Source: a virus. Taken from it: a stretch of DNA of 11,886 nt. Positions 78 through 11,886 of this stretch are shown in pieces (within the stretch, counting starts at the first letter, position 1; the number at the start of each line of letters is the position of its first letter). A program made the translations under genes and the position numbers. Below the pieces are notes generated by a model that did not search any database, was not told where the DNA came from, and saw only the letters and a list, made by a program, of their open reading frames with translations. Where the stretch lies: UHGV virus genome UHGV-0180981. One strand, given 5' to 3'.

Positions 78-556
78 GTCACTAAATTCCTTACAATACA
101 GCTGGTTAGACGATTAAATCTGTCTCTTTTGCCTGTAAGAAATGCTCTGTTATGTCCCTTGAAAAAGCCGCTGTGGTTGATAGTGGTAATTGGGATGTTA
201 ACTCATAGCGGCGTGTCGTTCCAGGCGTCAAACACGTACTGACTCAACTTGAAAGCTATGACGTAGCCACCGTCTCTAAACAATCCCAAAAACTTTTAGT
301 GAAGCGCATTTTAGCCCGATGCCCCCGTTCTGTCGCCGTCGCGAGACGCCGCAGGGGATAAACAGGTTTATGGTGGTCACGGTACTTGCAGACCATATGC
401 AAGCTCTGCCAGCGGTTCGGCCTCGCTCCCCTTGGGTACATGGTCATCCTGATAAGCCTCACTAACTGACATAACCCTGATGAAGTCGCCAGAGGCTCCG
501 CTTGTTGTCTTACCACCAACGGGGCTTTATGGATTCTATTGCGGTATGTTTGAAAG

Positions 557-580
557 CGCGCGGGGGTTCATTCCCGCGCG
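557..580 (-). terminator. GC-rich hairpin 10 bp downstream of the 304-aa ORF stop (weak U-tract)
   Basis: CGCGCGGG (557-564) pairs with CCCGCGCG (573-580) around an 8-nt loop; on the minus strand only about 3 U follow, so intrinsic termination is uncertain. Confidence 0.35.
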
Positions 581-589
581 TCCGGCGCT

Positions 590-1504
590 TTATGGTAAGT
601 ATTTAAGTATTTCTGCTGCCCAGTTTACACGGTGGATGACACGGGCATGGTGCAAGTTTCCGTCTAGTATTTCGGCTTTAGTTAGCTGGGATAACTGCTG
701 CCAATTATTGTTAAGTATATAAGTTGCGTTATTACATTGTGAGCTTTCTAGCACGTAAATGTTTTGGCCTGTGAACCCAAATATCACGTAGCCTTGGAAC
801 CCAGCTTGCCCAACCGCTACGAAATCTGGTTTTTTACTATTGATAAGTTCAAGTCTGCCTTCAACAACAGCGGTATTGCCCTTTCCCCTGATCTTAATAG
901 CTGAAAGGATTTTTGAACCGATAGTACTCCAAGGCTGTTGACCCTGAGGCAGGAGGCTCCAGTTTAGTTTTATAGATTTACTTTTAACGATGGTATTAAG
1001 TTGGTCGTCAACAGTTTCGCACAACCCAAAAAGCTCTAAAAAAAGATTAATGCAGTGAGCCACTAACTCTTTGTTGTTAGCTGTCAAACTTAGCTTTGGA
1101 GAGATGATCAACTTCTCCCCTTGCAGATTCTCTACAATCTTTAACTCTATGCTTGGTGGAGGGGTGAGGATTCTCTTGTAGCGCTTATACTCAATTTCAC
1201 GAGTGTCAGTAACTTCTTGAGTTGCGCCCCCTCCGATCCATTGCTTTCTAGTCCATGAAATTTGTCTGTATGCAGTTTCTTTAGGTGCTGTTTTGTCAGG
1301 TACTGATTTGCCATTAGCATTGAATCTGGTTATTGGCCCTAAAATTTTGGGGAGGACTTCTTCACCTAAAGCTCTTTGACTTGAGAAACCAATAGAGTCC
1401 GTTTTCCCCGCATCTGGCAAAGAATGTGCAATGTAGATATCACGGCCATCAAAGTTAGGTATGTAATTATCAATATTTCGAATACGCTTTTTCTGAATAA
1501 GCAT
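590..1504 (-). CDS. Hypothetical protein, 304 aa, no recognisable family; AT-rich foreign-looking cargo gene
   Basis: Longest ORF in the AT-rich arm; ATG start with AGGAA about 8 nt upstream on the minus strand; hairpin follows the stop; no motifs recognised by eye. Confidence 0.6.
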   Translation of the reverse strand: MLIQKKRIRNIDNYIPNFDGRDIYIAHSLPDAGKTDSIGFSSQRALGEEVLPKILGPITRFNANGKSVPDKTAPKETAYRQISWTRKQWIGGGATQEVTDTREIEYKRYKRILTPPPSIELKIVENLQGEKLIISPKLSLTANNKELVAHCINLFLELFGLCETVDDQLNTIVKSKSIKLNWSLLPQGQQPWSTIGSKILSAIKIRGKGNTAVVEGRLELINSKKPDFVAVGQAGFQGYVIFGFTGQNIYVLESSQCNNATYILNNNWQQLSQLTKAEILDGNLHHARVIHRVNWAAEILKYLP

Positions 1505-1636
1505 GGATCGTTCCTTTTGATTTTATCTTACTGTTTACATAACCAACCAAGCCGGGCACAATCGAGCCGTTAGAAACGATAGTGAGGCTAACAATCGTTA
1601 TGAGTTTGCAGACTCATGGCGGTCATGCTTCATAGA

Positions 1637-1667
1637 CCGGATTCACGCAGGTGACTCCGGTTTTTTT
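1637..1667 (+). terminator. Rho-independent terminator (plus strand)
   Basis: CCGGA-T-TCAC / GTGA-C-TCCGG stem with 4-nt loop, followed by a run of 7 T (1661-1667). Confidence 0.55.
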
Positions 1668-2338
1668 ATGCCCATCATTTATACATGGGCACAACATATA
1701 GGGTGTGTTAATAAGATTACCCCCTACATGTTCAGCATTCTAGTTAGGATTCTTTGCAGTACAAGGGTTGATTTTGAGGTTAAATTGAGGTTGTCAAAGG
1801 GAAATTTCGACCAACCCTACGTGCCGTAAGGCTTAGGCTGTATGTCAATGTTTCAGAAAAAAAAATGAAAATTTGATCGAGTGCTGATTTCTTTAGCACG
1901 AGAACATGAGAACGAACCAAAATATTGCAAAGTTTTGAACAAAACTTGAACTGCCTCGTGTCTCCATAGCCAAGACGAATGCAGTTTAAATAAGCTAAGT
2001 CAGCTCTCAAAAGTCCTTTATGACCCGAACCAAAAAATGTACCTCTTAAACCCCACCGCAAGCGGCTCTCCGGGGTTTGTGCGCGTGGAGTAATGCGGTT
2101 GTACTGGGTATGTGCGCACAACCCTCTACAAGCCGCATTCTACCGTTAGCCTATAGCTGAATCCCCGGCTTGAAAAATTGTACGCTTATGGTTGCCCCTC
2201 CCTCAACTGTATAGCTCGCCCGCGCCCCCGTGCGCATGTGCGTGCCCGCGCGTCAGGGGTCGCTGAGAAAACCCTAAGATTTTGCTCATCCGAGACAACC
2301 GTTGCAGGCGCGTGTTGCCGAGGGCACACTGCTAGTGT

Positions 2339-2448
2339 TTGATGGTGTCATCAATCGTTCGATTTTTGCTACCTTCCTGAGTGATTACTATCTGGTGTCA
2401 TCAATTTAGGGTTTGACTAAATGCTACCACCAATGCAATGATGCTACC
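2339..2448. promoter_or_regulatory. Repeat cluster upstream of serine recombinase gene (candidate res/operator sites)
   Basis: TGGTGTCATCAAT exact direct repeat at 2343-2355 and 2393-2405; first copy sits in inverted repeat TTGATG-gtgt-CATCAA (2339-2354); TGCTACC three times (2367-2373, 2422-2428, 2442-2448). Confidence 0.4.
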
Positions 2449-2479
2449 GTTTTGTGATACCAGACGGGTGAGGTGAACC

Positions 2480-3055
2480 ATGAGGACTTTTATCTATTGC
2501 CGCGTTTCAACACGCGAGCAGGATACGCAGAATCAGGTGCTGGCTATTGAGCGTGCCGGGTATAAGGTGCCGGAGAGCAGGGTAATCAGTGAGGACATTT
2601 CCGGTAGCGTTCAGGCTATGCAGCGCCCTAAGTTTCGGGCGATGGTTGAGCATAAGCTGGAAGCGGGAGATCAGCTTGTCGTGCTGAAACTGGACAGGCT
2701 GGGGCGCGACAACATCGACGTGCAACAGACCATCGACATGCTGTTAGAACGTGGCGTGAAGGTGGTGTCTCTTGACCTGCCTGCGCGTGATCTGACTTCA
2801 TCTGAGGGCAAGCTAATCCGCCAGATGTTTGGAGCCTTTGCTGAGTTCGAGCGAAACCGTATCCGTGAGAGGACGCTTGACGGGCTGGAGAAGGCGAAAG
2901 CCAATGGCGTTAAGCTGGGACGCAAGGAAGCCACCGACACCACTCAAAAGGTGCAGGAGCTGCGGAGTGAGGGGCTGTCTCAATCGAAGGTAGCGAAGCG
3001 TCTCGGAGTTAGTGTGAGCACCGTTAAACGCCACTGGAACAAGGGCGAGGGGTGA
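2480..3055 (+). CDS. Small serine recombinase (resolvase/invertase family), 191 aa
   Basis: N-terminal YCRVSTREQ catalytic-serine motif, LKLDRLGRD motif, C-terminal HTH (SQSKVAKRLGVSVSTVKRH); GAGGTG RBS about 8 nt upstream of ATG. Confidence 0.92.
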   Translation: MRTFIYCRVSTREQDTQNQVLAIERAGYKVPESRVISEDISGSVQAMQRPKFRAMVEHKLEAGDQLVVLKLDRLGRDNIDVQQTIDMLLERGVKVVSLDLPARDLTSSEGKLIRQMFGAFAEFERNRIRERTLDGLEKAKANGVKLGRKEATDTTQKVQELRSEGLSQSKVAKRLGVSVSTVKRHWNKGEG

Positions 3056-3994
3056 TGACCTACAAGCGAACGAGGTGCTACGACTGGCCGTTACTGGGCT
3101 GTGGGTGATGGATTACCTACAGCTTTTGTATTTATTTCAGAGGGTTATGTTATGCTTAATATCATAACGATATGATTTATAATGTATTTTCGTGTTACTT
3201 GCGGCTCTTGATGTGAAGAGGTGGCGGGGCTTTAGCCGTGCCAGACGATGAACATCGAGATCAGATTGTGAATGTGATTTATCACTGAACAATTCAAGGG
3301 ATGGGGCAGGGGAAGGGATCAAAGGCTGCGTTGTCCAATCACTAAGCTAGATTTGAAGCTGGTGAACACGTTACTAGTATCTTTAAAGTTGCATTTAAAA
3401 TGCATGTACAAAAAAGGGTTCTTCCCTTACATCCCTTCTCCTAAATGTAGTTACGAGTGCTTCGCTCTCTTCACTTGCTGCGCTTCTCGCTATGCTCCAG
3501 CCCGCTCCATCGCCTTTGGCTCATTCCCGGTCTTCGCCCGCTGCTGATGCTCGGCCACTCTACGCAACCGTGCTTGCCGTGGCAGGCAACGCGGCGGGAA
3601 GGTGTAGTGGTACGGTACTATGTATCGGTATTATTAATGTATTCAATCACATACTGTTATCAGTAGGTATCCTTCAAAACATCTTCATCCATTTCTGTAT
3701 CATTCAATCATCTTTCTTGTTCGTTTCCTTTCAGGTCTTAGCCGTTGTTCATTGGTCTTACTGCCTGCTGTGCTACTGCCAGCTATGGCACGCCGTTACG
3801 GTCTACTGTGTCACCTGTCCTACTGCGTTCACTGTCTGCCGTCTGTCATCCTGTCGGATTCCATCCGTCATCCGTTCCGCGCTCGCTTGTTTCGGCTGCG
3901 CCGCGCTCGCTCTGCGTATCTAGCGATACTCTATCACTATAGACACTTTCATAATTATCTAATGATTACAGTAACTTATATTTTTAATTTTAAA

Positions 3995-4255
3995 GGCTAC
4001 TAATAAGGAGATATAGAGCATTACTTTCCCGCTTTTGACCGACAAAAATCGCGTTGTTAAGTATTGCCAGCCCAGGCCCAGTAAGGCTTAGCGAGGTGGT
4101 GGTTAAAAATTGACCTAATGAAAGTATCTACTAAGGAGAAAGAATAACTCCCGAAGCGAGACAAACTCTCCGATTTTGAAAGTGACTATTAAGGCAGATA
4201 AAGACACTGACACTGTTGCCGACATGAAAACCTCTATAAGGGCAGAGAGTCTGCC
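3995..4255 (+). repeat. Four degenerate direct repeats (iteron/operator-like), core CTAnTAAGG(n)AGA
   Basis: Copies at 3995-4019, 4124-4150, 4182-4209, 4231-4255, all in the same orientation in non-coding DNA upstream of the helicase-led array. Confidence 0.5.
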
Positions 4256-4316
4256 GCACCTGTACCACCGCCCCAACCTGAGCTAATACCTACCCCTATT
4301 TTCTGGAGATTTCACC

Positions 4317-6161
4317 ATGCCAACAAACCTACGCCGCCTGCTTGCGCAGGCTGCCGACGCTGACCCGCTCAATACTGCGGACGCAGATGTACAGCAAATG
4401 ATCGCTGACGGGACTGTTATTCGACGTTCCAAGATATGCCCCGTAAAGCGTAAACCCGTTAAGGCGGCATACAACACAAAGACCGAAGAGTTTTATTACA
4501 ATGCTGATGGTTCCGCTATGACCCTGCGGGAGTGGCGAACGCTGCACGGTGTTCAACCGAAGAAGCAAAAACAGCGCTCTGACGCTGGGTTGCGGCAAGT
4601 CATCCAGCCCGGCGACGCGATTCACTGTCGACGCGCTGAGATTGAGCAATGGCTAAATAAAAAGCCTGCTCGTTATGTTGAACCACTGCCGCCAGATTTC
4701 CCCGGCGTTCGCGTAGACGAGGCTGCATTGAAACCGCGCGAGCACGCCGTGCCGGAATCAACAACCGGACAGAATGCTTTTCTCAAAGCCTGCCGCGAGT
4801 TTCTGATTTGCGACGAGAAGACCATGCGCCGCATTAACAGGGGCATGAATAAACTGGAAGCGATGCGCAATACAGATTTCAAACGCTACGGGAACTCAGC
4901 GGAGTTTCGTCAATTGTGGTGTGGAGAGTCGAAACCTACCGAGGATAAATTTAACAGTACAAATCATCATTGTGACCCGAACGGCTTGGCTGCATCGCCG
5001 TCTATGCCGTCACTGAATACTGTGCCGTATGAGTTCCGTCCGCTGGTTCGCTGTGACCGAAACGCACGCGTCAGCCTGCTGCCACCCGATGGGCTGGAGT
5101 GGAGGCCGGGACAGTTGTCTGTTGCTGATGCGATCTTTACCCGTGGTAGGGATGTGCTTGCCGTACTGCCGACCGGGTATGGCAAAAGCGCCGCCTTCAC
5201 TTATCCACTGATTTATGAGTCCCGCGCTGGCATTGGCCTGTCTGTAATCGTGGTTCCTACTAATACCCTTAAGCGTCAGATTCTCCGCCAGTTGCGGGAG
5301 GCTGGCATTCACGCCGTGGCCTTTGGCGATAAGCTACCGAGGCACCGCAACGCACAACAACTGGCGGGACTAGCAGCCGGGGCGTTCCGGCTTGCTGTTG
5401 TTTCGCCTGAACATCTGGTTCCGTCGAGTCAGGTTCTCGCGGCGCTGATGGCTTATGGCGTTGATCGTTTTATTATCGATGAGGCACACACGGTCAAAGA
5501 CTGGGATTTCCGCCCAGCTTACGACGCAATGCAGCACACACTACAGAATGCTTTTCCCTCGGCTCAACGTTGCGTGTTTACGGCTACTCTACTACGTGAA
5601 AATGAGCGCGGTTTAATGGAGGCGCTGGGGTGCCGTGGCAATTACGTCACATTCCGTGCTGATGTTGCTCGCGAGCATATCCAGTTGATTCCGGTCAGGC
5701 AGTGCCGCGAACGTTTCCGAGCGGCTATTGGTCTGGTCGAGGCTCTGCCGAAAGAAGAGAAGACGCTTATTCTCGTCAATGACCTTAAAACGTTGCGGGC
5801 GTACCTGAAACTCTTGGGCGACCGGGCGCGGCCATATCACTCGAAGACGATGCACCTGAGCAACGAGGAACGCCACGCAAACGCTGAGTGGTTTGCCTCT
5901 ACGCCGGGCGCGATTCTTATTGCTACTAAAGCCTTCGGGCTGGGTGCTGATGTTCCTGATATCCGTAACGTTGTCGTGACATACGTCCCCGATGATTTGC
6001 CTGATCTCGTTCAGATGATTGGACGAGCCGGGCGCGATGGGGAACCTGCCCGCGCTTTTCTGCTGTGGTCATCGCTGGCGCTGGATGTTGCGCCTGATGA
6101 GCTTGCTTACTTCTACCGCCCTGAAAACTGCAACTGGCAGTACATCGCTAAATACCTCTGA
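4317..6161 (+). CDS. RecQ-like superfamily 2 DEAH helicase with uncharacterised ~270-aa N-terminal domain, 614 aa
   Basis: Motif I LPTGYGKS, Ia VIVVPTNTL, II IIDEAHTV with DWDFRPAY, III FTATL, VI GRAGRDG; ends about 45 aa after motif VI, so no RQC/HRDC; GGAG RBS. Confidence 0.9.
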   Translation: MPTNLRRLLAQAADADPLNTADADVQQMIADGTVIRRSKICPVKRKPVKAAYNTKTEEFYYNADGSAMTLREWRTLHGVQPKKQKQRSDAGLRQVIQPGDAIHCRRAEIEQWLNKKPARYVEPLPPDFPGVRVDEAALKPREHAVPESTTGQNAFLKACREFLICDEKTMRRINRGMNKLEAMRNTDFKRYGNSAEFRQLWCGESKPTEDKFNSTNHHCDPNGLAASPSMPSLNTVPYEFRPLVRCDRNARVSLLPPDGLEWRPGQLSVADAIFTRGRDVLAVLPTGYGKSAAFTYPLIYESRAGIGLSVIVVPTNTLKRQILRQLREAGIHAVAFGDKLPRHRNAQQLAGLAAGAFRLAVVSPEHLVPSSQVLAALMAYGVDRFIIDEAHTVKDWDFRPAYDAMQHTLQNAFPSAQRCVFTATLLRENERGLMEALGCRGNYVTFRADVAREHIQLIPVRQCRERFRAAIGLVEALPKEEKTLILVNDLKTLRAYLKLLGDRARPYHSKTMHLSNEERHANAEWFASTPGAILIATKAFGLGADVPDIRNVVVTYVPDDLPDLVQMIGRAGRDGEPARAFLLWSSLALDVAPDELAYFYRPENCNWQYIAKYL

Positions 6162-6198
6162 GTCGAAAGGCTCTCCCTGATTCTCTGGAGTTAATCAT

Positions 6199-6636
6199 AT
6201 GCCTGTTACCGAACATGCGCAGCGTCGTGCTGCGCGTGCGGATGCGCTCATCACCGCACAACTAGCCTTCGCCCTGAATGGGTACAACTGGGATGAACTG
6301 GCCGAACCTCATCGCAAGACCCTTAATCGTGAGGCCATCATTCGCGAGGTATCTACACCGCTGGAGCGATATTGCCTGCTGAATGATTGCGAGCCGTGGG
6401 AGTGTCTGGCCGCTGTACTGAACCGCATGAAAAGGCCGGATGGCTCGCGTCGCTGGAAAGCCGTCCGTTTGTCCGACCGGGTTTTCAATGGCCGAGTGCA
6501 TCCAGTGCGCAAAACGCCTGATGAAGTTTACGCCGCCATTGCCCGCCGCTTGTTCCTGCCGAAGCCCGTGCATCAAGAAGTGATACAGCACATCCGTGCG
6601 CTTGGCTTGTTACCAATTGGAGACAACCACCAATGA
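6199..6636 (+). CDS. Hypothetical protein, 145 aa
   Basis: GGAG RBS 9 nt upstream; 37 bp after helicase stop; stop overlaps next start (ATGA). Confidence 0.6.
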   Translation: MPVTEHAQRRAARADALITAQLAFALNGYNWDELAEPHRKTLNREAIIREVSTPLERYCLLNDCEPWECLAAVLNRMKRPDGSRRWKAVRLSDRVFNGRVHPVRKTPDEVYAAIARRLFLPKPVHQEVIQHIRALGLLPIGDNHQ

Positions 6637-6842
6637 CGAAATCTGAATTTGAAAATGAAACATGGCGAATGAAGGGCTTGCTTCTTGGGGCGCTGATTCG
6701 CCGCCTTGAGGAAGATAAGGCTGGCGAGTCGCGCATGGTCGCAGCGGAGTTATCCAGTGCGGTCAACTTCCTTAAGGCCAACGCCGTAGAAGCGCCGGAC
6801 ACATCATTCAACAACGTGTTCCCGGAGGATGACGAGCAATGA
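6633..6842 (+). CDS. Hypothetical small protein, 69 aa
   Basis: ATGA overlap with upstream and downstream genes; GGAGA RBS. Confidence 0.55.
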   Translation: MTKSEFENETWRMKGLLLGALIRRLEEDKAGESRMVAAELSSAVNFLKANAVEAPDTSFNNVFPEDDEQ

Positions 6843-7015
6843 CCCCTGAACAATTCAGACAATGGTTCGCCACGCTGCCACCGAACTATCAGAGCACCGC
6901 ACGCACCATGTACGACAACGCCCGCAAGTCGGGCACACATACCGCGTCAAGCCTTGCGCTGATTCACACGTTGGTTACTGACCAGATCAAATTTGATTCG
7001 GAGTTTAATTTATGA
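6839..7015 (+). CDS. Hypothetical small protein, 58 aa (below the ORF-track length cutoff)
   Basis: Translated by hand: ATG at 6839 overlaps upstream stop (ATGA), stop at 7013-7015 overlaps next start at 7012 (ATGA); GGAGGA RBS about 9 nt upstream. Confidence 0.45.
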   Translation: MTPEQFRQWFATLPPNYQSTARTMYDNARKSGTHTASSLALIHTLVTDQIKFDSEFNL

Positions 7016-7575
7016 CTTTGAGTATTACCGATATCCAGCGCATTAACGCGCTGGCTCATAAGCACCTAAAGAACAATGAAGAGATTGCAGCGGAGACAGG
7101 TCATACCCTGACCGATATTGATGCTGTAATCCGTGGCGTCTATGTCGATGACTTGGCCGAACATTGGAAAGACGATGCTGATATTACTCTGGCGGAGTAC
7201 AACGCCATCCGCAGCCGCTATAAGCCCGGCAAGCTGCACCGCGATACAGAGTTTATGATTGCCCGCGATATGCTGATTCGCCCTGAGACTGTGCTGGCTA
7301 TCGCCCATTCCCGCTTTAGCAACGTCCACACTCACCCAGTGCCGAAAGCCGTCAAAGCAAAGCCGGAGAAAGCGAAAGTAGTGCGCAAGTTGGTGCCTAC
7401 TGATTTAGATGAAATTCACAAGTTAGAGCGCTTCGGTTGGCCTGCTGCGGAGATCGCCGGGAAGCTGGGCGTCCCTGTTGAGGTCGTCGCGCATGTGCAA
7501 CGCTGCCTGAGAAATCGTTGGTCGTACCCGGATACTCTGGAGTCTGTTAACTCCAAATTCAGCGAGGCTGAATGA
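7012..7575 (+). CDS. Hypothetical protein with putative HTH motifs, 187 aa
   Basis: GGAG RBS 8 nt upstream; HTH-like segments near N-terminus and in LERFGWPAAEIAGKLGVPVEVV; ATGA overlap at both ends. Confidence 0.6.
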   Translation: MTLSITDIQRINALAHKHLKNNEEIAAETGHTLTDIDAVIRGVYVDDLAEHWKDDADITLAEYNAIRSRYKPGKLHRDTEFMIARDMLIRPETVLAIAHSRFSNVHTHPVPKAVKAKPEKAKVVRKLVPTDLDEIHKLERFGWPAAEIAGKLGVPVEVVAHVQRCLRNRWSYPDTLESVNSKFSEAE

Positions 7576-7808
7576 TGGCAGAGAACGAACCTCTGCACCC
7601 CGCCGTTAACCCTGATCTCTACGTGAACCTTGACGAACAACGTGAAGGATACGCCCCGTTTGAATCACGCGGCTGGGATGTTCTGACAAAGAACCTGTCC
7701 GGGGAAGGGCGAACTGACCCCGGCCAAATGCTTAACCAGAATCCGAAACAACGCCCGCGCGGCTCCGTTGGTGAGCGTCGTTGGCTTCGTAAACGTGGAT
7801 TACTTTAA
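7572..7808 (+). CDS. Hypothetical small protein, 78 aa
   Basis: Start overlaps upstream stop (ATGA); basic C-terminus. Confidence 0.5.
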   Translation: MMAENEPLHPAVNPDLYVNLDEQREGYAPFESRGWDVLTKNLSGEGRTDPGQMLNQNPKQRPRGSVGERRWLRKRGLL

Positions 7809-7820
7809 CGAGGAATTACC

Positions 7821-8060
7821 ATGAGCAAAACTATCGTATTGCTGCCGCCACGCAAGAATACAGACTGGGCTGCGCAATTAAAGCTGATTTCTGAATCGCT
7901 TGAGGTGAGTCAGGCAGACCTCGCCCGCGCCTATCAGGTTGATCGTCGGGATATGGGTAAAGCGTATCACGGTGTGCGCAAACTGCCGGAACGTTGTGTG
8001 CCTGTTCATATGCTGTTGTTAGCGCAGGTACACGACTTTAGAGCATTATCAGGAGAATAA
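7821..8060 (+). CDS. Cro/YdaS-like HTH DNA-binding protein, 79 aa
   Basis: GAGG RBS; HTH followed by LPERC motif (SQADLARAYQV...GVRKLPERCVPV) resembling phage Cro/YdaS-type regulators. Confidence 0.6.
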   Translation: MSKTIVLLPPRKNTDWAAQLKLISESLEVSQADLARAYQVDRRDMGKAYHGVRKLPERCVPVHMLLLAQVHDFRALSGE

Positions 8061-8063
8061 TTT

Positions 8064-8744
8064 ATGTCTGACCAGAATGTTAATCCGTACCTTTCCGGTG
8101 CTGATACTGCATCGCAGCAATCGCCGTACATGGCTGCACCTGTTGGCGCTGACAATGGCGCATCCCGCTTTAGCTCTGCGCCTGCTGATGCTGATTTCCT
8201 CCGTACCCAACCCGTTAACGGTAATGATGGCGGCCAATGGAATAATGGCAGTATCGCGAATCAGCAGGATCAGAACGCTGACAGCGCCGGGGCGCAGGTG
8301 GGCGATACTATCTCCCTGATGGATGGAACAGCTATTGAGTACACCGCCGAGCTGCAAGGATTGATGGGACAGTTTCATCAGTCTGTCGAAAGCCAGCTAG
8401 GGCAAGGGACAGTTGACGCTATGTTGCAGTACGCTGGCACGCTCGATGCCGGGACGCAATCGACCCTTGAACGGATGGTTATGTCTGGCGACCCTGCGCA
8501 GATGCAGCGAGCCGTTCAGTATCTGCAAGAGAGGATGGCTGGCGGTTCCATTACCGGTTACGTCCCGAACGGCCAGACTGCCGCGCAACCTGTCGGAATG
8601 TCACATGCTGAGTTTATAGCAGCGTATGACCAGCTTTCGCAGTGGGCGCAGCAATCAGGGTATGGCCCCGGCCATCGCCAGTACGACGAACAATACCGCG
8701 CTCTGGTTGCGCAGCGCTCCGCTGGCAAACGTGCTGGCCGCTAA
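8064..8744 (+). CDS. Hypothetical protein, 226 aa, low-complexity N-terminal half, helical C-terminal half
   Basis: AGGAGA RBS 8 nt upstream; starts 3 nt after previous stop. Confidence 0.6.
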   Translation: MSDQNVNPYLSGADTASQQSPYMAAPVGADNGASRFSSAPADADFLRTQPVNGNDGGQWNNGSIANQQDQNADSAGAQVGDTISLMDGTAIEYTAELQGLMGQFHQSVESQLGQGTVDAMLQYAGTLDAGTQSTLERMVMSGDPAQMQRAVQYLQERMAGGSITGYVPNGQTAAQPVGMSHAEFIAAYDQLSQWAQQSGYGPGHRQYDEQYRALVAQRSAGKRAGR

Positions 8745-8861
8745 CACCCAACGGTGGAATGCGCCCTGCAAGACTGAGTGCGCACCAACCCGGTACTACC
8801 ACACCAATCTATGCGCATGAGTCCCCGCAAGCCGTATTCTGCGCGGCATCTGAAAGCCTGT

Positions 8862-8887
8862 TTTTAATTAACCGAGGTTCGTAATGA
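8862..8887. promoter_or_regulatory. hix/gix-like 26-bp site with core AACCGAGGTT
   Basis: Core 8870-8879 is the gix crossover-region sequence; each flanking half-site matches the hix half-site consensus at about 8/12; overlaps the ATG at 8884. Confidence 0.25.
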
Positions 8888-9297
8888 GTACCTGTAATTT
8901 CCATGCCGTGGAGCGTGTCGCTGACGTGCGCCCGGATTTCGCCTTGCCGCTGGGTAGATGCGATCACATTTACCCTGAGCGTGTGCAGCACGTTTTCAAT
9001 CCAGACGAGGCGGTTTATATCGTTGCCCGGTCTGCCACATCCGGCACCCGCACATCTGGCGTTAGCCGTGGGCTTTCCCCTGTGCTGCCGCCGAAGATGG
9101 CCGAGCGCATGCGCGAACGTGAACGGCACGAGAAGAATCGAGCCAGACCCCGCAATGTGATCACTGAGGCAGTACGCGCTGACATTATCGAGCGCTCTGC
9201 AAAAGGTCAGAAGAATCGTTACATTGCAAGCAAGGTTGGTGTGTCTGAAACCTCTGTGCGGAAGGTGTTGAACATGGCGCGTATGAGTGCGCACTAA
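8884..9297 (+). CDS. DNA-binding protein with C-terminal Hin/resolvase-type HTH, 137 aa
   Basis: C-terminal RPRNVITEAVRADIIERSAKGQKNRYIASKVGVSETSVRKVL resembles the Hin DNA-binding domain; no catalytic domain; true start may be an internal Met. Confidence 0.55.
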   Translation: MSTCNFHAVERVADVRPDFALPLGRCDHIYPERVQHVFNPDEAVYIVARSATSGTRTSGVSRGLSPVLPPKMAERMRERERHEKNRARPRNVITEAVRADIIERSAKGQKNRYIASKVGVSETSVRKVLNMARMSAH

Positions 9298-9493
9298 TGC
9301 AAGGTAATACGTTCGCCTTACTTCACGCGCATTAACCCCTGAGAACCGCGCCAGCTCTGGCCTCAAAACGCCCATTCGGGGCACCTCATCCCTTTAATCG
9401 ATACCGTTCTGAATCCTGCCTCGGCGGGAGGATTCCGCACGTCTGTGCCATGACGATGGCGCGGGCTTCATCAACCTATGTAGGAGTTTTGTT

Positions 9494-9991
9494 ATGGCTG
9501 ATACTTCGTACAGTCCCGATCTGTTTCGCCCACACTATGGCGGGGTGGAATCCGACAATGATATTCACATCGAGGCTTATGACCGGGACATCCAGACCCG
9601 TTTAGAGTCCAAATCTGTATTTCTGGCCGAGGGGCTGTCTACATACAGGCCGCTGAAAGCCAGCAACCAATATCGTGTTGATCGCCTGAGTGGTGATCTG
9701 GAGGTGAAGGGCAGAGCCGCAGGGCAATCGCTGGAGCATACCGCCGTTAAGTCGGACAAGCTGATTATCTCTGTGGATACGCTGAGCTATCTCCGCATCC
9801 CGATTGACTATCAGGAGGACTGGACAGCACCCACTTTTCGCTCAGAGCTGAGCCGCAATATGGGTACTGCTCACGCTAAATTCTACGACGAAGCGCACAC
9901 CATCCAGCTAATCAAAGCGACTGACTTTGTATCGCCGCCGACACTGCAACCAACGTTTAACCCACTAAGCGAGTCCATTCCAGAGCAATAG
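9494..9991 (+). CDS. Hypothetical protein, 165 aa; possibly an N-terminal fragment of a T7-like major capsid protein
   Basis: AGGAG RBS 8 nt upstream; by-eye resemblance to T7 gp10 N-terminal region (LF...GG, ED...RSExxxxxGxxxA); ORF ends at about half normal capsid length. Confidence 0.55.
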   Translation: MADTSYSPDLFRPHYGGVESDNDIHIEAYDRDIQTRLESKSVFLAEGLSTYRPLKASNQYRVDRLSGDLEVKGRAAGQSLEHTAVKSDKLIISVDTLSYLRIPIDYQEDWTAPTFRSELSRNMGTAHAKFYDEAHTIQLIKATDFVSPPTLQPTFNPLSESIPEQ

Positions 9992-10154
9992 CATCCCGAA
10001 ACAATCGCGCTTGGCGTACATCGCGTGTCCCTGTGCTTTTCATAAAGTAGCGCTTCCCTTGGAACAGGTGGCGCATGTAGTTGGGGATAGCTATCCGCAC
10101 GAGGTAATTCCCGCAGGGATCTAAAACTAGATAACGATCTCTCTTGAAACTCAT
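9957..10154 (-). pseudogene. Tyrosine integrase N-terminal remnant (about 65 codons)
   Basis: YLVRIAIPNYMRHLFQGKRYFMKSTGTRDVRQARLFRDAIALEWTRL fits the integrase N-terminal arm-binding pattern; stops after 65 codons, no catalytic domain; sits about 130 bp inside the right repeat. Confidence 0.35.
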
Positions 10155-10159
10155 ACAAA

Positions 10160-10185
10160 CCCCGGTTATGTTGTCGGGGCTTTTT
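10160..10185 (+). terminator. Rho-independent terminator (plus strand) near right end of island
   Basis: CCCCG (10160-10164) pairs with CGGGG (10175-10179), optionally extended by a G-U pair, followed by 5 T (10181-10185). Confidence 0.5.
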
Positions 10186-10287
10186 CATGGCTAAACAGTC
10201 TGTGAAATGTGCCGGGGTCATGAGCTTTAGTCTAGCTAGTTCAACAAGTTAACGATGATTGTTGAAGCAAGCTAAGTCGCTATAACC

Positions 10288-10319
10288 CGTGCCGGTTCGA
10301 GTCCGGCCTTCGGCACCAA
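10288..10319 (+). repeat. Right copy of 32-bp direct repeat (attR-like; partial tRNA 3' end only)
   Basis: Identical to 46-77; upstream sequence does not match the tRNA body. Confidence 0.8.
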
Positions 10320-10333
10320 AAGATGCAAATCAA

Positions 10334-10357
10334 AGTCGCTTAAGGGCGGCTTTTTTT
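10334..10357 (+). terminator. Rho-independent terminator, probably the native leuX terminator displaced by the insertion
   Basis: AGTCGC/GCGGCT stem (one G-U pair), 6-nt loop, 7 T (10351-10357), immediately after the right repeat; no equivalent follows the tRNA at 77. Confidence 0.6.
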
Positions 10358-10714
10358 GTGTCTGAAATACACGTAAAGTTTTCCTTTCAACGGAAGACAA
10401 TCTGATTCAGCCAATATCAAATTTCTTATAAGTATAGAACAGAATATATTCTCATTCGATAATTGTCATATTTGTGCATAAGCTTTCCGGTGATTTTGAA
10501 AGGTTATTTGTCTTAGCCTGACGCTTTCCGCTTTATCCTGGAAAAGGAATGTCTGCTGTCCCGCATGGTTTAAACATCTCACATCTGCTGTAACGAACCT
10601 CAAACTTTCTCCATCATTGATTAACTTGCTGTGATTTTGGTCATTGCTCGGGAAGCTTCAGAAAGTTAAAGTAAAAATTATGTTCCTAAAATGTATGCGC
10701 AGGCCTGCATAACA

Positions 10715-11886
10715 ATGATGAATAAATCCAATTTTGAGTTCCTGAAGGGCGTCAACGATTTCACCTATGCCATTGCATGTGCGGCGGAAAATAACTACCC
10801 GGATGATCCCAATACTGCGCTGGTAAAAATGCGTATGTTTGGCGAAGCGACGGCAAAACATCTTGGTCTGCTGCTGGATATTCCTCCCTGTGAAAATCAG
10901 CACGAACTCCTGCGTGAGCTTGGAAAAATTGCCTTCGTTGACGACAGCATTCTTTCCGTGTTCCATAAATTACGTCGTATTGGTAACCAGGCTGTCCACG
11001 AATACCATAACGATCTTGATGATGCTCAGATGTGCTTACGGCTAGGTTTTCGGCTGGGCGTCTGGTACTACCGTTTGGTTACGAAAGATTATGACTTCCC
11101 TGTGCCTGTTTTTGTTTTACCGGAGCGCGGAGAAAATCTTTACCGTCAGGAAGTACTGACGTTAAAACAAAAGCTAGAAGAGCAGTCACGTGAGAAAGCA
11201 CTCAGTCAGGCTGAACTCGAAGCACAGCAGCAGAAACTGATTGCTCTGAACGGTTATATTGCCATTCTTGAAGGTAAGCAGCAGGAAACTGAAGCACAGA
11301 CATTGGCTCGTTTCTCAGCACTGGAAGCGCAGTTAGCTGAGAAAAATGCGAAGCTGGCTAAGCTCACGGAACAGGAAAGAAAAGCCTACCATAAAGAAAT
11401 TACCGACCAGGCCGTCAAGCGTACACTGAATCTCAGTGAAGAGGAGAGTCGCTTCCTGATTGACGCTCAGTTACGTAAAGCGGGTTGGCAGGCGGATAGT
11501 AAAATGCTGCGCTTTGCCAAAGGTGCTCGCCCGGAACCGGGTATTAATAAAGCGATTGCCGAATGGCCTACGGGCGTAGATGAAACGGGTAAGCAAGGAT
11601 TTGCGGATTATGTTCTGTTCGTTGGCCTCAAGCCCATCGCCGTTGTCGAAGCAAAACGTAAAAATATTGATGTTCCCGGCAAGCTGAATGAGGCTTATCG
11701 ATACAGTAAATATTTCGATAATGCGTTTTTGCGCGATACGCTTCTGGAGCAATTTACCCCCGACGATATACACGAAACCCTACCGGTTTACGAAATCAGC
11801 TGGCAAGATACCAGCGGCACACAGCGTTTTAAAATCCCCTTTTGCTACTCCACCAACGGGCGTGAATACCGCGCGGCAATGAAGAC
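10715..11886 (+). CDS. hsdR: Type I restriction enzyme R subunit (HsdR, EcoKI-like), N-terminal ~390 codons; continues past window end
   Basis: Hand translation from ATGATG at 10715 is open to the window end; N-terminus MMNKSNFEFLKGVNDFTYAIACAAENNYPDDPNTAL matches the recognised EcoKI-family HsdR N-terminus; coiled-coil Q/E/A-rich segment. Confidence 0.9.
   Translation, partial: MMNKSNFEFLKGVNDFTYAIACAAENNYPDDPNTALVKMRMFGEATAKHLGLLLDIPPCENQHELLRELGKIAFVDDSILSVFHKLRRIGNQAVHEYHNDLDDAQMCLRLGFRLGVWYYRLVTKDYDFPVPVFVLPERGENLYRQEVLTLKQKLEEQSREKALSQAELEAQQQKLIALNGYIAILEGKQQETEAQTLARFSALEAQLAEKNAKLAKLTEQERKAYHKEITDQAVKRTLNLSEEESRFLIDAQLRKAGWQADSKMLRFAKGARPEPGINKAIAEWPTGVDETGKQGFADYVLFVGLKPIAVVEAKRKNIDVPGKLNEAYRYSKYFDNAFLRDTLLEQFTPDDIHETLPVYEISWQDTSGTQRFKIPFCYSTNGREYRAAMK

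Follow-up and report, generated by a model that had tools for sequence, protein, structure and literature searches.

CapH, an XRE-type protein, and CapP, an M78-type protein, are DNA-damage-responsive regulators encoded upstream of, and opposite to, operons of the cyclic oligonucleotide-based antiphage signaling system (CBASS) and other immune operons, and the operons under their control include a class described as "DUF2188 + hypothetical protein" (Lau et al., 2022, bioRxiv 10.1101/2022.04.27.489752). In the RosmerTA toxin-antitoxin defence systems, an antitoxin that combines a helix-turn-helix (HTH) with an ImmA-type protease (RmrA) is paired with diverse toxins of unknown function. The tisB/istR-1 locus is an SOS-linked type I toxin-antitoxin locus whose toxin is a small membrane peptide, and solitary abortive infection (Abi) or other defence genes such as AbiJ-NTD4 occupy tRNA hotspots. 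Here, these systems are compared with a gene that encodes a protein of 304 amino acids (aa) from an ATG start on the minus strand, at 590-1504 of UHGV virus genome UHGV-0180981, a stretch of 11,886 nucleotides that was analysed whole and is referred to as the window. The sequence of the window is identical to that of NZ_CP091700.1, the chromosome of Escherichia coli KFu019, and the gene product, found in the list of open reading frames (ORFs), is annotated in RefSeq as "hypothetical protein" (WP_000908169.1). We tentatively favour the reading that the members of this protein family are stress-gated effectors of a toxin-like, abortive-infection or anti-phage kind.

The arrangement of the CapH/CapP operons recurs at several loci of the family, where capH-like and capP-like genes stand immediately upstream of the family gene and are divergent from it, and a DUF2188 gene sometimes follows the family gene, as at locus L039 of our survey (capP and capH on one strand, in this order, followed by the family gene and DUF2188 on the other). 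These loci differ from the described operons in that the family protein is unrelated to the effectors of the CBASS, DISARM (defence island system associated with restriction-modification) and ubiquitin-like operons, and the E. coli copy, together with about two thirds of the loci, is without such regulators. The hypothetical proteins of the operon that Lau et al. (2022) describe from Extensimonas are at most possible members of the family, no named Extensimonas match having appeared among the top 120. The single-gene defence systems of tRNA hotspots offer a further likeness: AbiJ-NTD4 is found in the same slot as the E. coli gene and is likewise solitary, variably present and AT-rich, whereas the family protein resembles no Abi or PADLOC family in sequence or in fold.

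A large family without a named domain

A preliminary description, made from the letters of the window and the list of its ORFs, had presented the gene as an orphan, and homology searches overturn this claim. A word-indexed search returned 722 homologs at E ≤ 1e-3, many of them about 45% identical over the full length, with Kosmotoga, Methanobacterium, cyanobacteria and Desulfobacterales among their sources, and an exhaustive profile search matched 2,015 representatives of 50%-identity clusters. The family is distributed over Proteobacteria, Cyanobacteria, Bacteroidota, Firmicutes, Chloroflexota, Patescibacteria and archaea, and at least 193 reference species have a relative, among them bacteria of the candidate phyla radiation, Bacteroidota, Chloroflexota, Actinomycetota, Firmicutes, Bathyarchaeota and Methanobacteriota. 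The 150 listed cluster representatives are about 300 aa long, save for some shorter (truncated) ones, and a fused domain is present in none of them. Family members are carried by 23 plasmids, and phages are nearly devoid of them (one of 50,697 phage records; eight of 2.9 million IMG/VR contigs). The family is large, unnamed and very widely transferred across bacteria and archaea.

Comparison of the E. coli ORF with its enterobacterial relatives gave a proportion of nonsynonymous differences (pN) of 0.13-0.14 vs a saturated proportion of synonymous differences (pS) of 0.78-0.81, i.e., a pN/pS of about 0.17. Strong purifying selection thus acts on the 304-aa ORF, which is therefore a genuine, translated and constrained coding gene. 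In line with the earlier mention of a reasonable ribosome binding site (RBS), a Shine-Dalgarno motif, AGGA, lies 7 nt 5' of the ATG (1512-1515, minus strand), and the relatives keep AAGGA or AGG. Among 249 members with a median identity of 42% to the query, 21 alignment columns are at least 97% invariant, and the invariant polar residues (N62, N153, E253, N259, Y262, K276, R288 and H291) fall mainly in the C-terminal part. The protein is basic, with an isoelectric point (pI) of 9.4, and has no transmembrane segment, its maximum 19-residue hydropathy being 1.55.

The preliminary description had also found no motif that it could assign, which still holds after searches of Pfam, NCBIfam, PHROGs and PADLOC, none of which has a profile that matches the protein. 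Sequence searches of the PDB, both with the single sequence and with a profile, returned noise only (CheY, E = 0.23; Pvc7, E = 0.69). The AlphaFold model is confident at the level of residues, with a predicted local distance difference test (pLDDT) score of 89.4, but its predicted template modelling (pTM) score of 0.53 suggests two domains whose mutual orientation is uncertain. Foldseek gave no significant match to this model in the PDB or BFVD, and structure comparison showed none of the PD-(D/E)xK, HEPN and nucleotidyltransferase folds that had been proposed as worth looking for. The C-terminal alpha+beta sandwich weakly resembles the UvrA interaction domain, the C-terminus of TnsE, MotA-C and YjbR-type sandwiches, as well as frataxin, YdhG and PDB 2plg (Tll0839, of unknown function), at 5-19% identity and with insignificant Foldseek scores, and the beta-rich N-terminal half matches nothing. 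Because the modelled protein combines a basic pI, invariant residues (E, N, Y, K, R and H) that cluster in the C-terminal domain and these weak fold echoes, a nucleic-acid-directed activity is the leading guess for what it may do. A HicA-like toxin accompanied by DUF2188, a domain tentatively related to HicB in the literature, was considered as well, and HicA similarity was ruled out at the profile level. The family fold has no close solved relative, and a domain definition would be deserved even if the idea of a defence function should fail, since the family escapes Pfam, NCBIfam and PADLOC.

Neighbours of the family genes

Neighbour surveys covered 80 reference-genome loci, to which five loci fetched earlier were added for the clustering of ORFs by BLAST (85 loci). 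No universal or obligatory partner gene was found among the 80 loci. Genes for XRE-HTH/M78 or HTH-Panacea proteins were found within 4 kb of the family gene in 26 of the 85 loci, and genes for LexA-like proteins (HTH + S24) within the same distance in 10, their regulator domains being confirmed by Pfam. Nearly all these regulator genes lie upstream of the family gene and most are divergent from it; as for Panacea, the gene at L024 is co-directional and lies 46 bp upstream of the family gene, and two others are divergent. In a local profile search, 25 of the 80 loci had a regulator as one of the two genes closest to the family gene on its upstream or downstream side. In the Pfam census of the two genes closest upstream, HTH_3 was met 14 times, S24 nine times, M78 seven times, DUF2188 five times and Panacea three times, and the PADLOC labels of these genes were capP (6), capH (6) and RmrA (7). 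The regulators that are split into two genes fit the capP and capH models of PADLOC better than that of RmrA, and such capH/capP genes stand divergently upstream of the family gene at L039, L018, L033, L036, L078, L084 and L060.

Downstream genes were more varied and included, in the Pfam census, DUF2188 (6), ResIII (4), Resolvase (3), HNH (3), N6_N4_Mtase, GmrSD_N, Cap15, RelA_SpoT and SLATT_5. DUF2188, which corresponds to the PADLOC candidate PDC-S16, is encoded beside the family gene, upstream (5) or downstream (6), in 11 of the 80 loci, in nine cases within 14-80 bp and on the same strand. It is also the sole family, with nine members, among 36 small same-strand ORFs that adjoin the family gene, the others being pairs or singletons. 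Both Panacea and DUF2188 proteins have been related to antitoxins in the literature; literature searches on PDC-S16 found nothing. Serine recombinases, integrases and relaxases are frequent neighbours too. Restriction and CBASS genes also occur, and among the large neighbouring genes are those for an OLD-family nuclease, a protein with a NACHT-associated domain, a ResIII/SNF2 helicase and a TrwC relaxase. One example of such a neighbourhood is plasmid 5 of Lactococcus cremoris SK11 (14 kb; L086, 2301-7912), in which the family gene follows, after 18 bp, the gene for a Type ISP restriction-modification enzyme of 1,560 aa with Mrr_cat, ResIII, N6_Mtase and Type_ISP_C domains.

Defence-type neighbourhoods, together with dedicated negative regulators that recur from lineage to lineage, form the pattern expected of a potentially harmful effector. 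According to the reading we favour, the soluble two-domain protein of about 300 aa would act as a self-contained and potentially harmful effector, with its expression restrained until stress releases it. A damage-responsive repressor would be the gate in many lineages, either of the CapH/CapP type (XRE HTH + M78) or LexA-like and usually divergent, and a small DUF2188 protein would sometimes be encoded beside the effector. The preliminary description had placed the gene among the cargo of tRNA islands, which it took to be frequently defence or toxin genes, and this finds partial support: the defence-type neighbours, the damage-type repressors and the presence of AbiJ-NTD4 in the same slot agree with it, but no PADLOC family is matched. 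If the reading is correct, about 2,000 sequence clusters that are named in no database would join the catalogue of prokaryotic immune and toxin genes. One effector would then be placed under different stress-sensing controls according to lineage (CapH/CapP, LexA-like proteins or antisense RNA), which would bear on the way in which defence genes are prevented from doing harm before they are needed.

The same neighbourhoods could also be explained, although we regard this as doubtful, by a damage-induced accessory gene of mobile elements that is neither toxin nor immune gene and would provide a DNA-binding, repair or processing protein, or a factor for the survival or movement of the element. 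Regulators of the LexA-like and ImmR/ImmA types, which adjoin family genes, have the life cycles of mobile elements under their control as well, and recombinases, integrases and relaxases are frequent among the neighbours. The basic pI, the weak likeness of the C-terminal domain to parts of UvrA, TnsE, MotA and YjbR, and the fact that most loci tolerate the family gene alone would all suit such a factor. However, the gene moves with non-coding flanks only, also into non-mobile contexts, and is tied to no type of element. Additionally, its neighbours are heavily of the defence type, and an Abi-type gene can fill the same slot in E. coli.

A conserved module in Enterobacterales

Relatives of the E. 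coli gene in other enterobacteria (72-88% protein identity) are located at unrelated sites, such as tRNA-Gly, the vicinity of lysS, metabolic genes and prophage ends. All of them are preceded by gene-free DNA of about 585-1,030 bp, mostly 700-820 bp. The proximal ~300 nt of this upstream DNA are conserved to the degree of coding sequence, with column values of 0.64-0.84 over 1508-1800 of the window, and identity drops to background (about 39%) past -450. From these alignments, the gene and its non-coding flanks appear to travel as a unit of about 2 kb. The enterobacterial copies are without protein regulators of the XRE/M78 or LexA-like kind. In a separate observation, an IMG/VR contig in which tail-fibre and baseplate genes are close by (L092, 3664-6000) has about 2.3 kb without any ORF of at least 90 aa upstream of its homolog, and the likeness of this stretch to the E. 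coli leader is confined to the proximal ~400 nt.

Within the conserved upstream DNA, a sigma-70 promoter is predicted on the minus strand at 1737-1764, consisting of a -35 element TTGTAC (1764-1759), a 16-nt spacer and a -10 element TAGAAT (1742-1737), with a predicted transcription start near 1729. An alignment of 10 enterobacterial relatives whose loci are unrelated shows that the -10 element varies within the consensus only (TAGAAT, TAAAAT, TAATAT) and that the TTG of the -35 element is kept. Transcription from this site would yield a 5' leader of about 225 nt (1505-1729, minus strand), predicted from column conservation, that begins with a putative stem-loop, i.e., an inverted repeat at 1695-1730 (minus strand), which could equally be an operator. 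The stem is kept in eight of the 10 relatives despite differing sequences (GGGG/CCCC, GUG/CAC, GC/GC), with z values of -1.5 to -5.5.

On the opposite strand, a promoter scan located a promoter-like site (TTTACA, 17 nt, CACAAT; 1534-1562, plus strand) whose hexamers and spacing are conserved in most relatives. It precedes a candidate antisense small RNA of about 99 nt (1569-1667, plus strand) that is absent from the RefSeq annotation and would be fully complementary to the leader of the gene. The candidate RNA comprises two stem-loops followed by a hairpin (1636-1661) and a run of seven T (1661-1667), about 75 nt past the promoter, and the T-run after the terminator hairpin is found on the plus strand only. 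Pairing of the terminator helix, which includes 22 G.U pairs, amounts to 90% on the plus strand vs 75% on the minus strand. RNAalifold recovers the same helix with one clearly compensatory pair (GC:4, AU:3, GU:3). No Rfam family matches the candidate RNA.

A further conserved non-coding element, at 351-458 (minus strand), lies on the 3' side of the gene and accompanies it in other genera, at unrelated sites, where downstream identity to E. coli reaches 79%. A frameshift at L101 (in alignment A6) argues against coding, and the hairpin of the element shows two or three compensatory pairs with a weak consensus energy; the element is a candidate for a structured RNA, a 3'-untranslated region or a recombination site. 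A downstream ORF of 87 aa (256-519, minus strand) was rejected as a partner gene, given that the copy at L101 is frameshifted and has an in-frame stop, and is probably not coding. Over 59 residues, this ORF is 58% identical to a called gene of 79 aa at the equivalent position of L104. Likewise, an upstream ORF of 113 aa (1780-2121) was rejected as a partner because it falls mostly within a stretch that is not conserved among the relatives.

No LexA box was found anywhere in the window (20-nt consensus, at most three mismatches), and when positions 1-2600 were searched by tblastn for traces of genes of the XRE, M78, LexA-like, Panacea or DUF2188 kinds, the best result was E = 0.035 over 15 residues. 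An invertible promoter under the control of the neighbouring serine recombinase was also considered and rejected, as there are no suitable long inverted repeats and the listed records match bases 1-2357 as one collinear piece, with the exception of one insertion sequence (IS).

Together with the effector reading, these signals would describe a second kind of gate, which in Enterobacterales would consist of the conserved promoter, the leader of about 225 nt with its 5' stem-loop and the antisense RNA of about 99 nt that pairs with the leader. Such an arrangement recalls tisB/istR-1, in which a divergent or antisense small RNA, here predicted, pairs with the leader of the toxin mRNA well upstream of the RBS, and there is a thematic link in DNA-damage control, represented in other lineages of the family by LexA-like and CapH/CapP regulators. 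It differs from tisB/istR-1 in that the family protein has 304 aa, is soluble and is probably enzymatic or nucleic-acid-binding, and in that the window has no LexA box.

The module could instead be read, in Enterobacterales, as a selfish addiction module of a type I-like kind, in which a toxin and an unstable antisense RNA antitoxin stabilise the island rather than act against phages, an explanation that we consider unlikely. The conserved antisense promoter and terminator opposite the leader, the compact unit of about 2 kb that travels together, and the Panacea or DUF2188 neighbours elsewhere are consistent with it. On the other hand, the toxins of type I systems are hydrophobic peptides of small size, and the family protein is a soluble one of 304 aa with a hydropathy maximum of 1.55. 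The antisense RNA is, moreover, predicted only, and the gene has been lost, disrupted by IS or truncated in some E. coli without obvious consequence.

Weight of the effector reading and the leuX slot

Several observations weigh against the reading of the family protein as a stress-gated effector. PADLOC-DB 2.0.0 yields no family at E ≤ 0.1 for the protein, and a literature search for its accession found no paper that mentions it and no reports of toxicity, defence or expression for members of the family. About two thirds of the loci, that of E. coli included, have no adjacent regulator or antitoxin, and an intrinsically toxic protein would not easily tolerate such solitude. The counts of defence-type neighbours are raw ones, some of the adjacency to regulators is mere co-location (see L082 below), and copies in Ewingella and Pectobacterium lie among ordinary metabolic genes. 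As to the RNA elements, covariation support is modest (a covariation term of about 0), and a DNA operator, instead of an RNA helix, can also take the form of an inverted repeat. An extended version of the effector reading would add several components: a new single-protein immune or abortive-infection effector of unprecedented fold, interchangeable damage-sensor gates (CapH/CapP, LexA-like, HTH-Panacea), a cis-antisense RNA gate that makes the enterobacterial module a type I-like toxin-antitoxin system with a large soluble toxin, and a 3' element that serves as a functional RNA or recombination site. That all of these should hold at once seems improbable to us.

A third alternative, that the gene encodes a canonical RosmerTA toxin (RmrT) whose RmrA antitoxin has been lost in E. 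coli, is very unlikely. The logic is shared, i.e., a protein of unknown function next to an HTH/Zn-peptidase partner, and RmrA is known to pair with diverse toxins of unknown function. RmrA-type HTH + M78 genes (PADLOC E of 1e-29 to 1e-33) adjoin the family gene at L016 and L022, where they are divergent. However, the family protein matches no RmrT model, and the split regulators are closer to capP/capH and are mostly divergent rather than co-operonic. The strongest RmrA neighbour (E = 1e-108) belongs to a pair at L082 (5750-7549), 452 bp upstream of the family gene, in which it follows, after 4 bp, a gene of 213 aa. The RosmerTA reading was rejected at this locus since RmrA there is already paired with its own 213-aa gene, and this canonical-looking pair is a case of co-location in a defence island and not of partnership with the family gene. 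The tblastn search of the window described above found neither an RmrA gene nor a remnant of one. Lastly, the few copies among metabolic genes might point to a protein with a housekeeping or metabolic role, or else to a non-functional relic, which is hardly credible given that only 1.9% of E. coli genomes have the gene, that its distribution across phyla is patchy at about 45% identity and includes plasmid copies, and that strong purifying selection excludes a relic.

Among 5,426 complete E. coli genomes, 101 have the gene, in every case on the chromosome, and some copies are interrupted by IS or truncated. It stands tail-to-tail with a tRNA-Leu gene of the leuX type, the 3' part of which occupies 1-76 of the window (plus strand; Rfam tRNA match at 1-73, annotated end at 76), in accordance with the tRNA-proximal position given in the preliminary description. 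The edge of the window cuts off the 5' end of the tRNA, which ARAGORN missed for this reason, and the anticodon CAA was read not in this tRNA but in the leuX loci L006 and L009, where the family protein is 100% identical. The spacer on the tRNA side (81-542) is present in 630 E. coli genomes, with or without the ORF. In all three of the ORF-lacking genomes that were examined, an AbiJ-NTD4 gene fills the slot past this spacer (4530-5354 at L107; 4030-4854 at L108 and L109), and this slot gene was found in 469 of the 5,426 genomes. The leuX position thus behaves as a hotspot of variable content, for which at least one alternative occupant is of the Abi type. Two of these three ORF-lacking genomes have a P4-like satellite inserted between leuX and the spacer.

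The GC content of the ORF is 0.410 (0.384 at third codon positions) and that of the block at 543-2357 is 0.442, compared with 0.494 in 1-542 and 0.516 in 2358-11886. The AT-richness described earlier is thus confirmed, and the word "sharply" applied to it was an overstatement. About 10 nt past the stop codon, a GC-rich hairpin of 8 bp (557-580, minus strand), which had also been described, may be a weak terminator: its RNA fold has a centroid energy of -17.7 kcal/mol and z = -2.0 (equalled by seven of 200 shuffles). A terminator scan did not call it, as the stem is followed only by CUUUC and has no T-run. With its boundaries near 543 and 2357, the E. coli module is small enough to be cloned whole.

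Most of the E. coli carriers match the window up to 2357 only, beyond which they have a serine recombinase allele of 47% identity and different cargo. An exact 13-nt direct repeat, TGGTGTCATCAAT, is located at 2343 and 2393 and so flanks this point. The serine recombinase gene of the window occupies 2480-3055 (plus strand), and the 47%-identical allele heads other cargo in the same slot elsewhere. The stretch at 2343-3055 looks like a site of recombinase-led cassette exchange. Further along the window, a 614-aa DEAD/DEAH helicase (4317-6161, plus strand) matches DpdF of PADLOC at E = 6e-273, with no other dpd genes nearby. According to the RefSeq annotation, the island continues (L001, 17480-30312) with numerous small ORFs, genes for a capsid protein, for HNH and other endonucleases and for a methyltransferase accompanied by a restriction endonuclease, and ends with an integrase gene on its far side, a layout that resembles that of a phage satellite.

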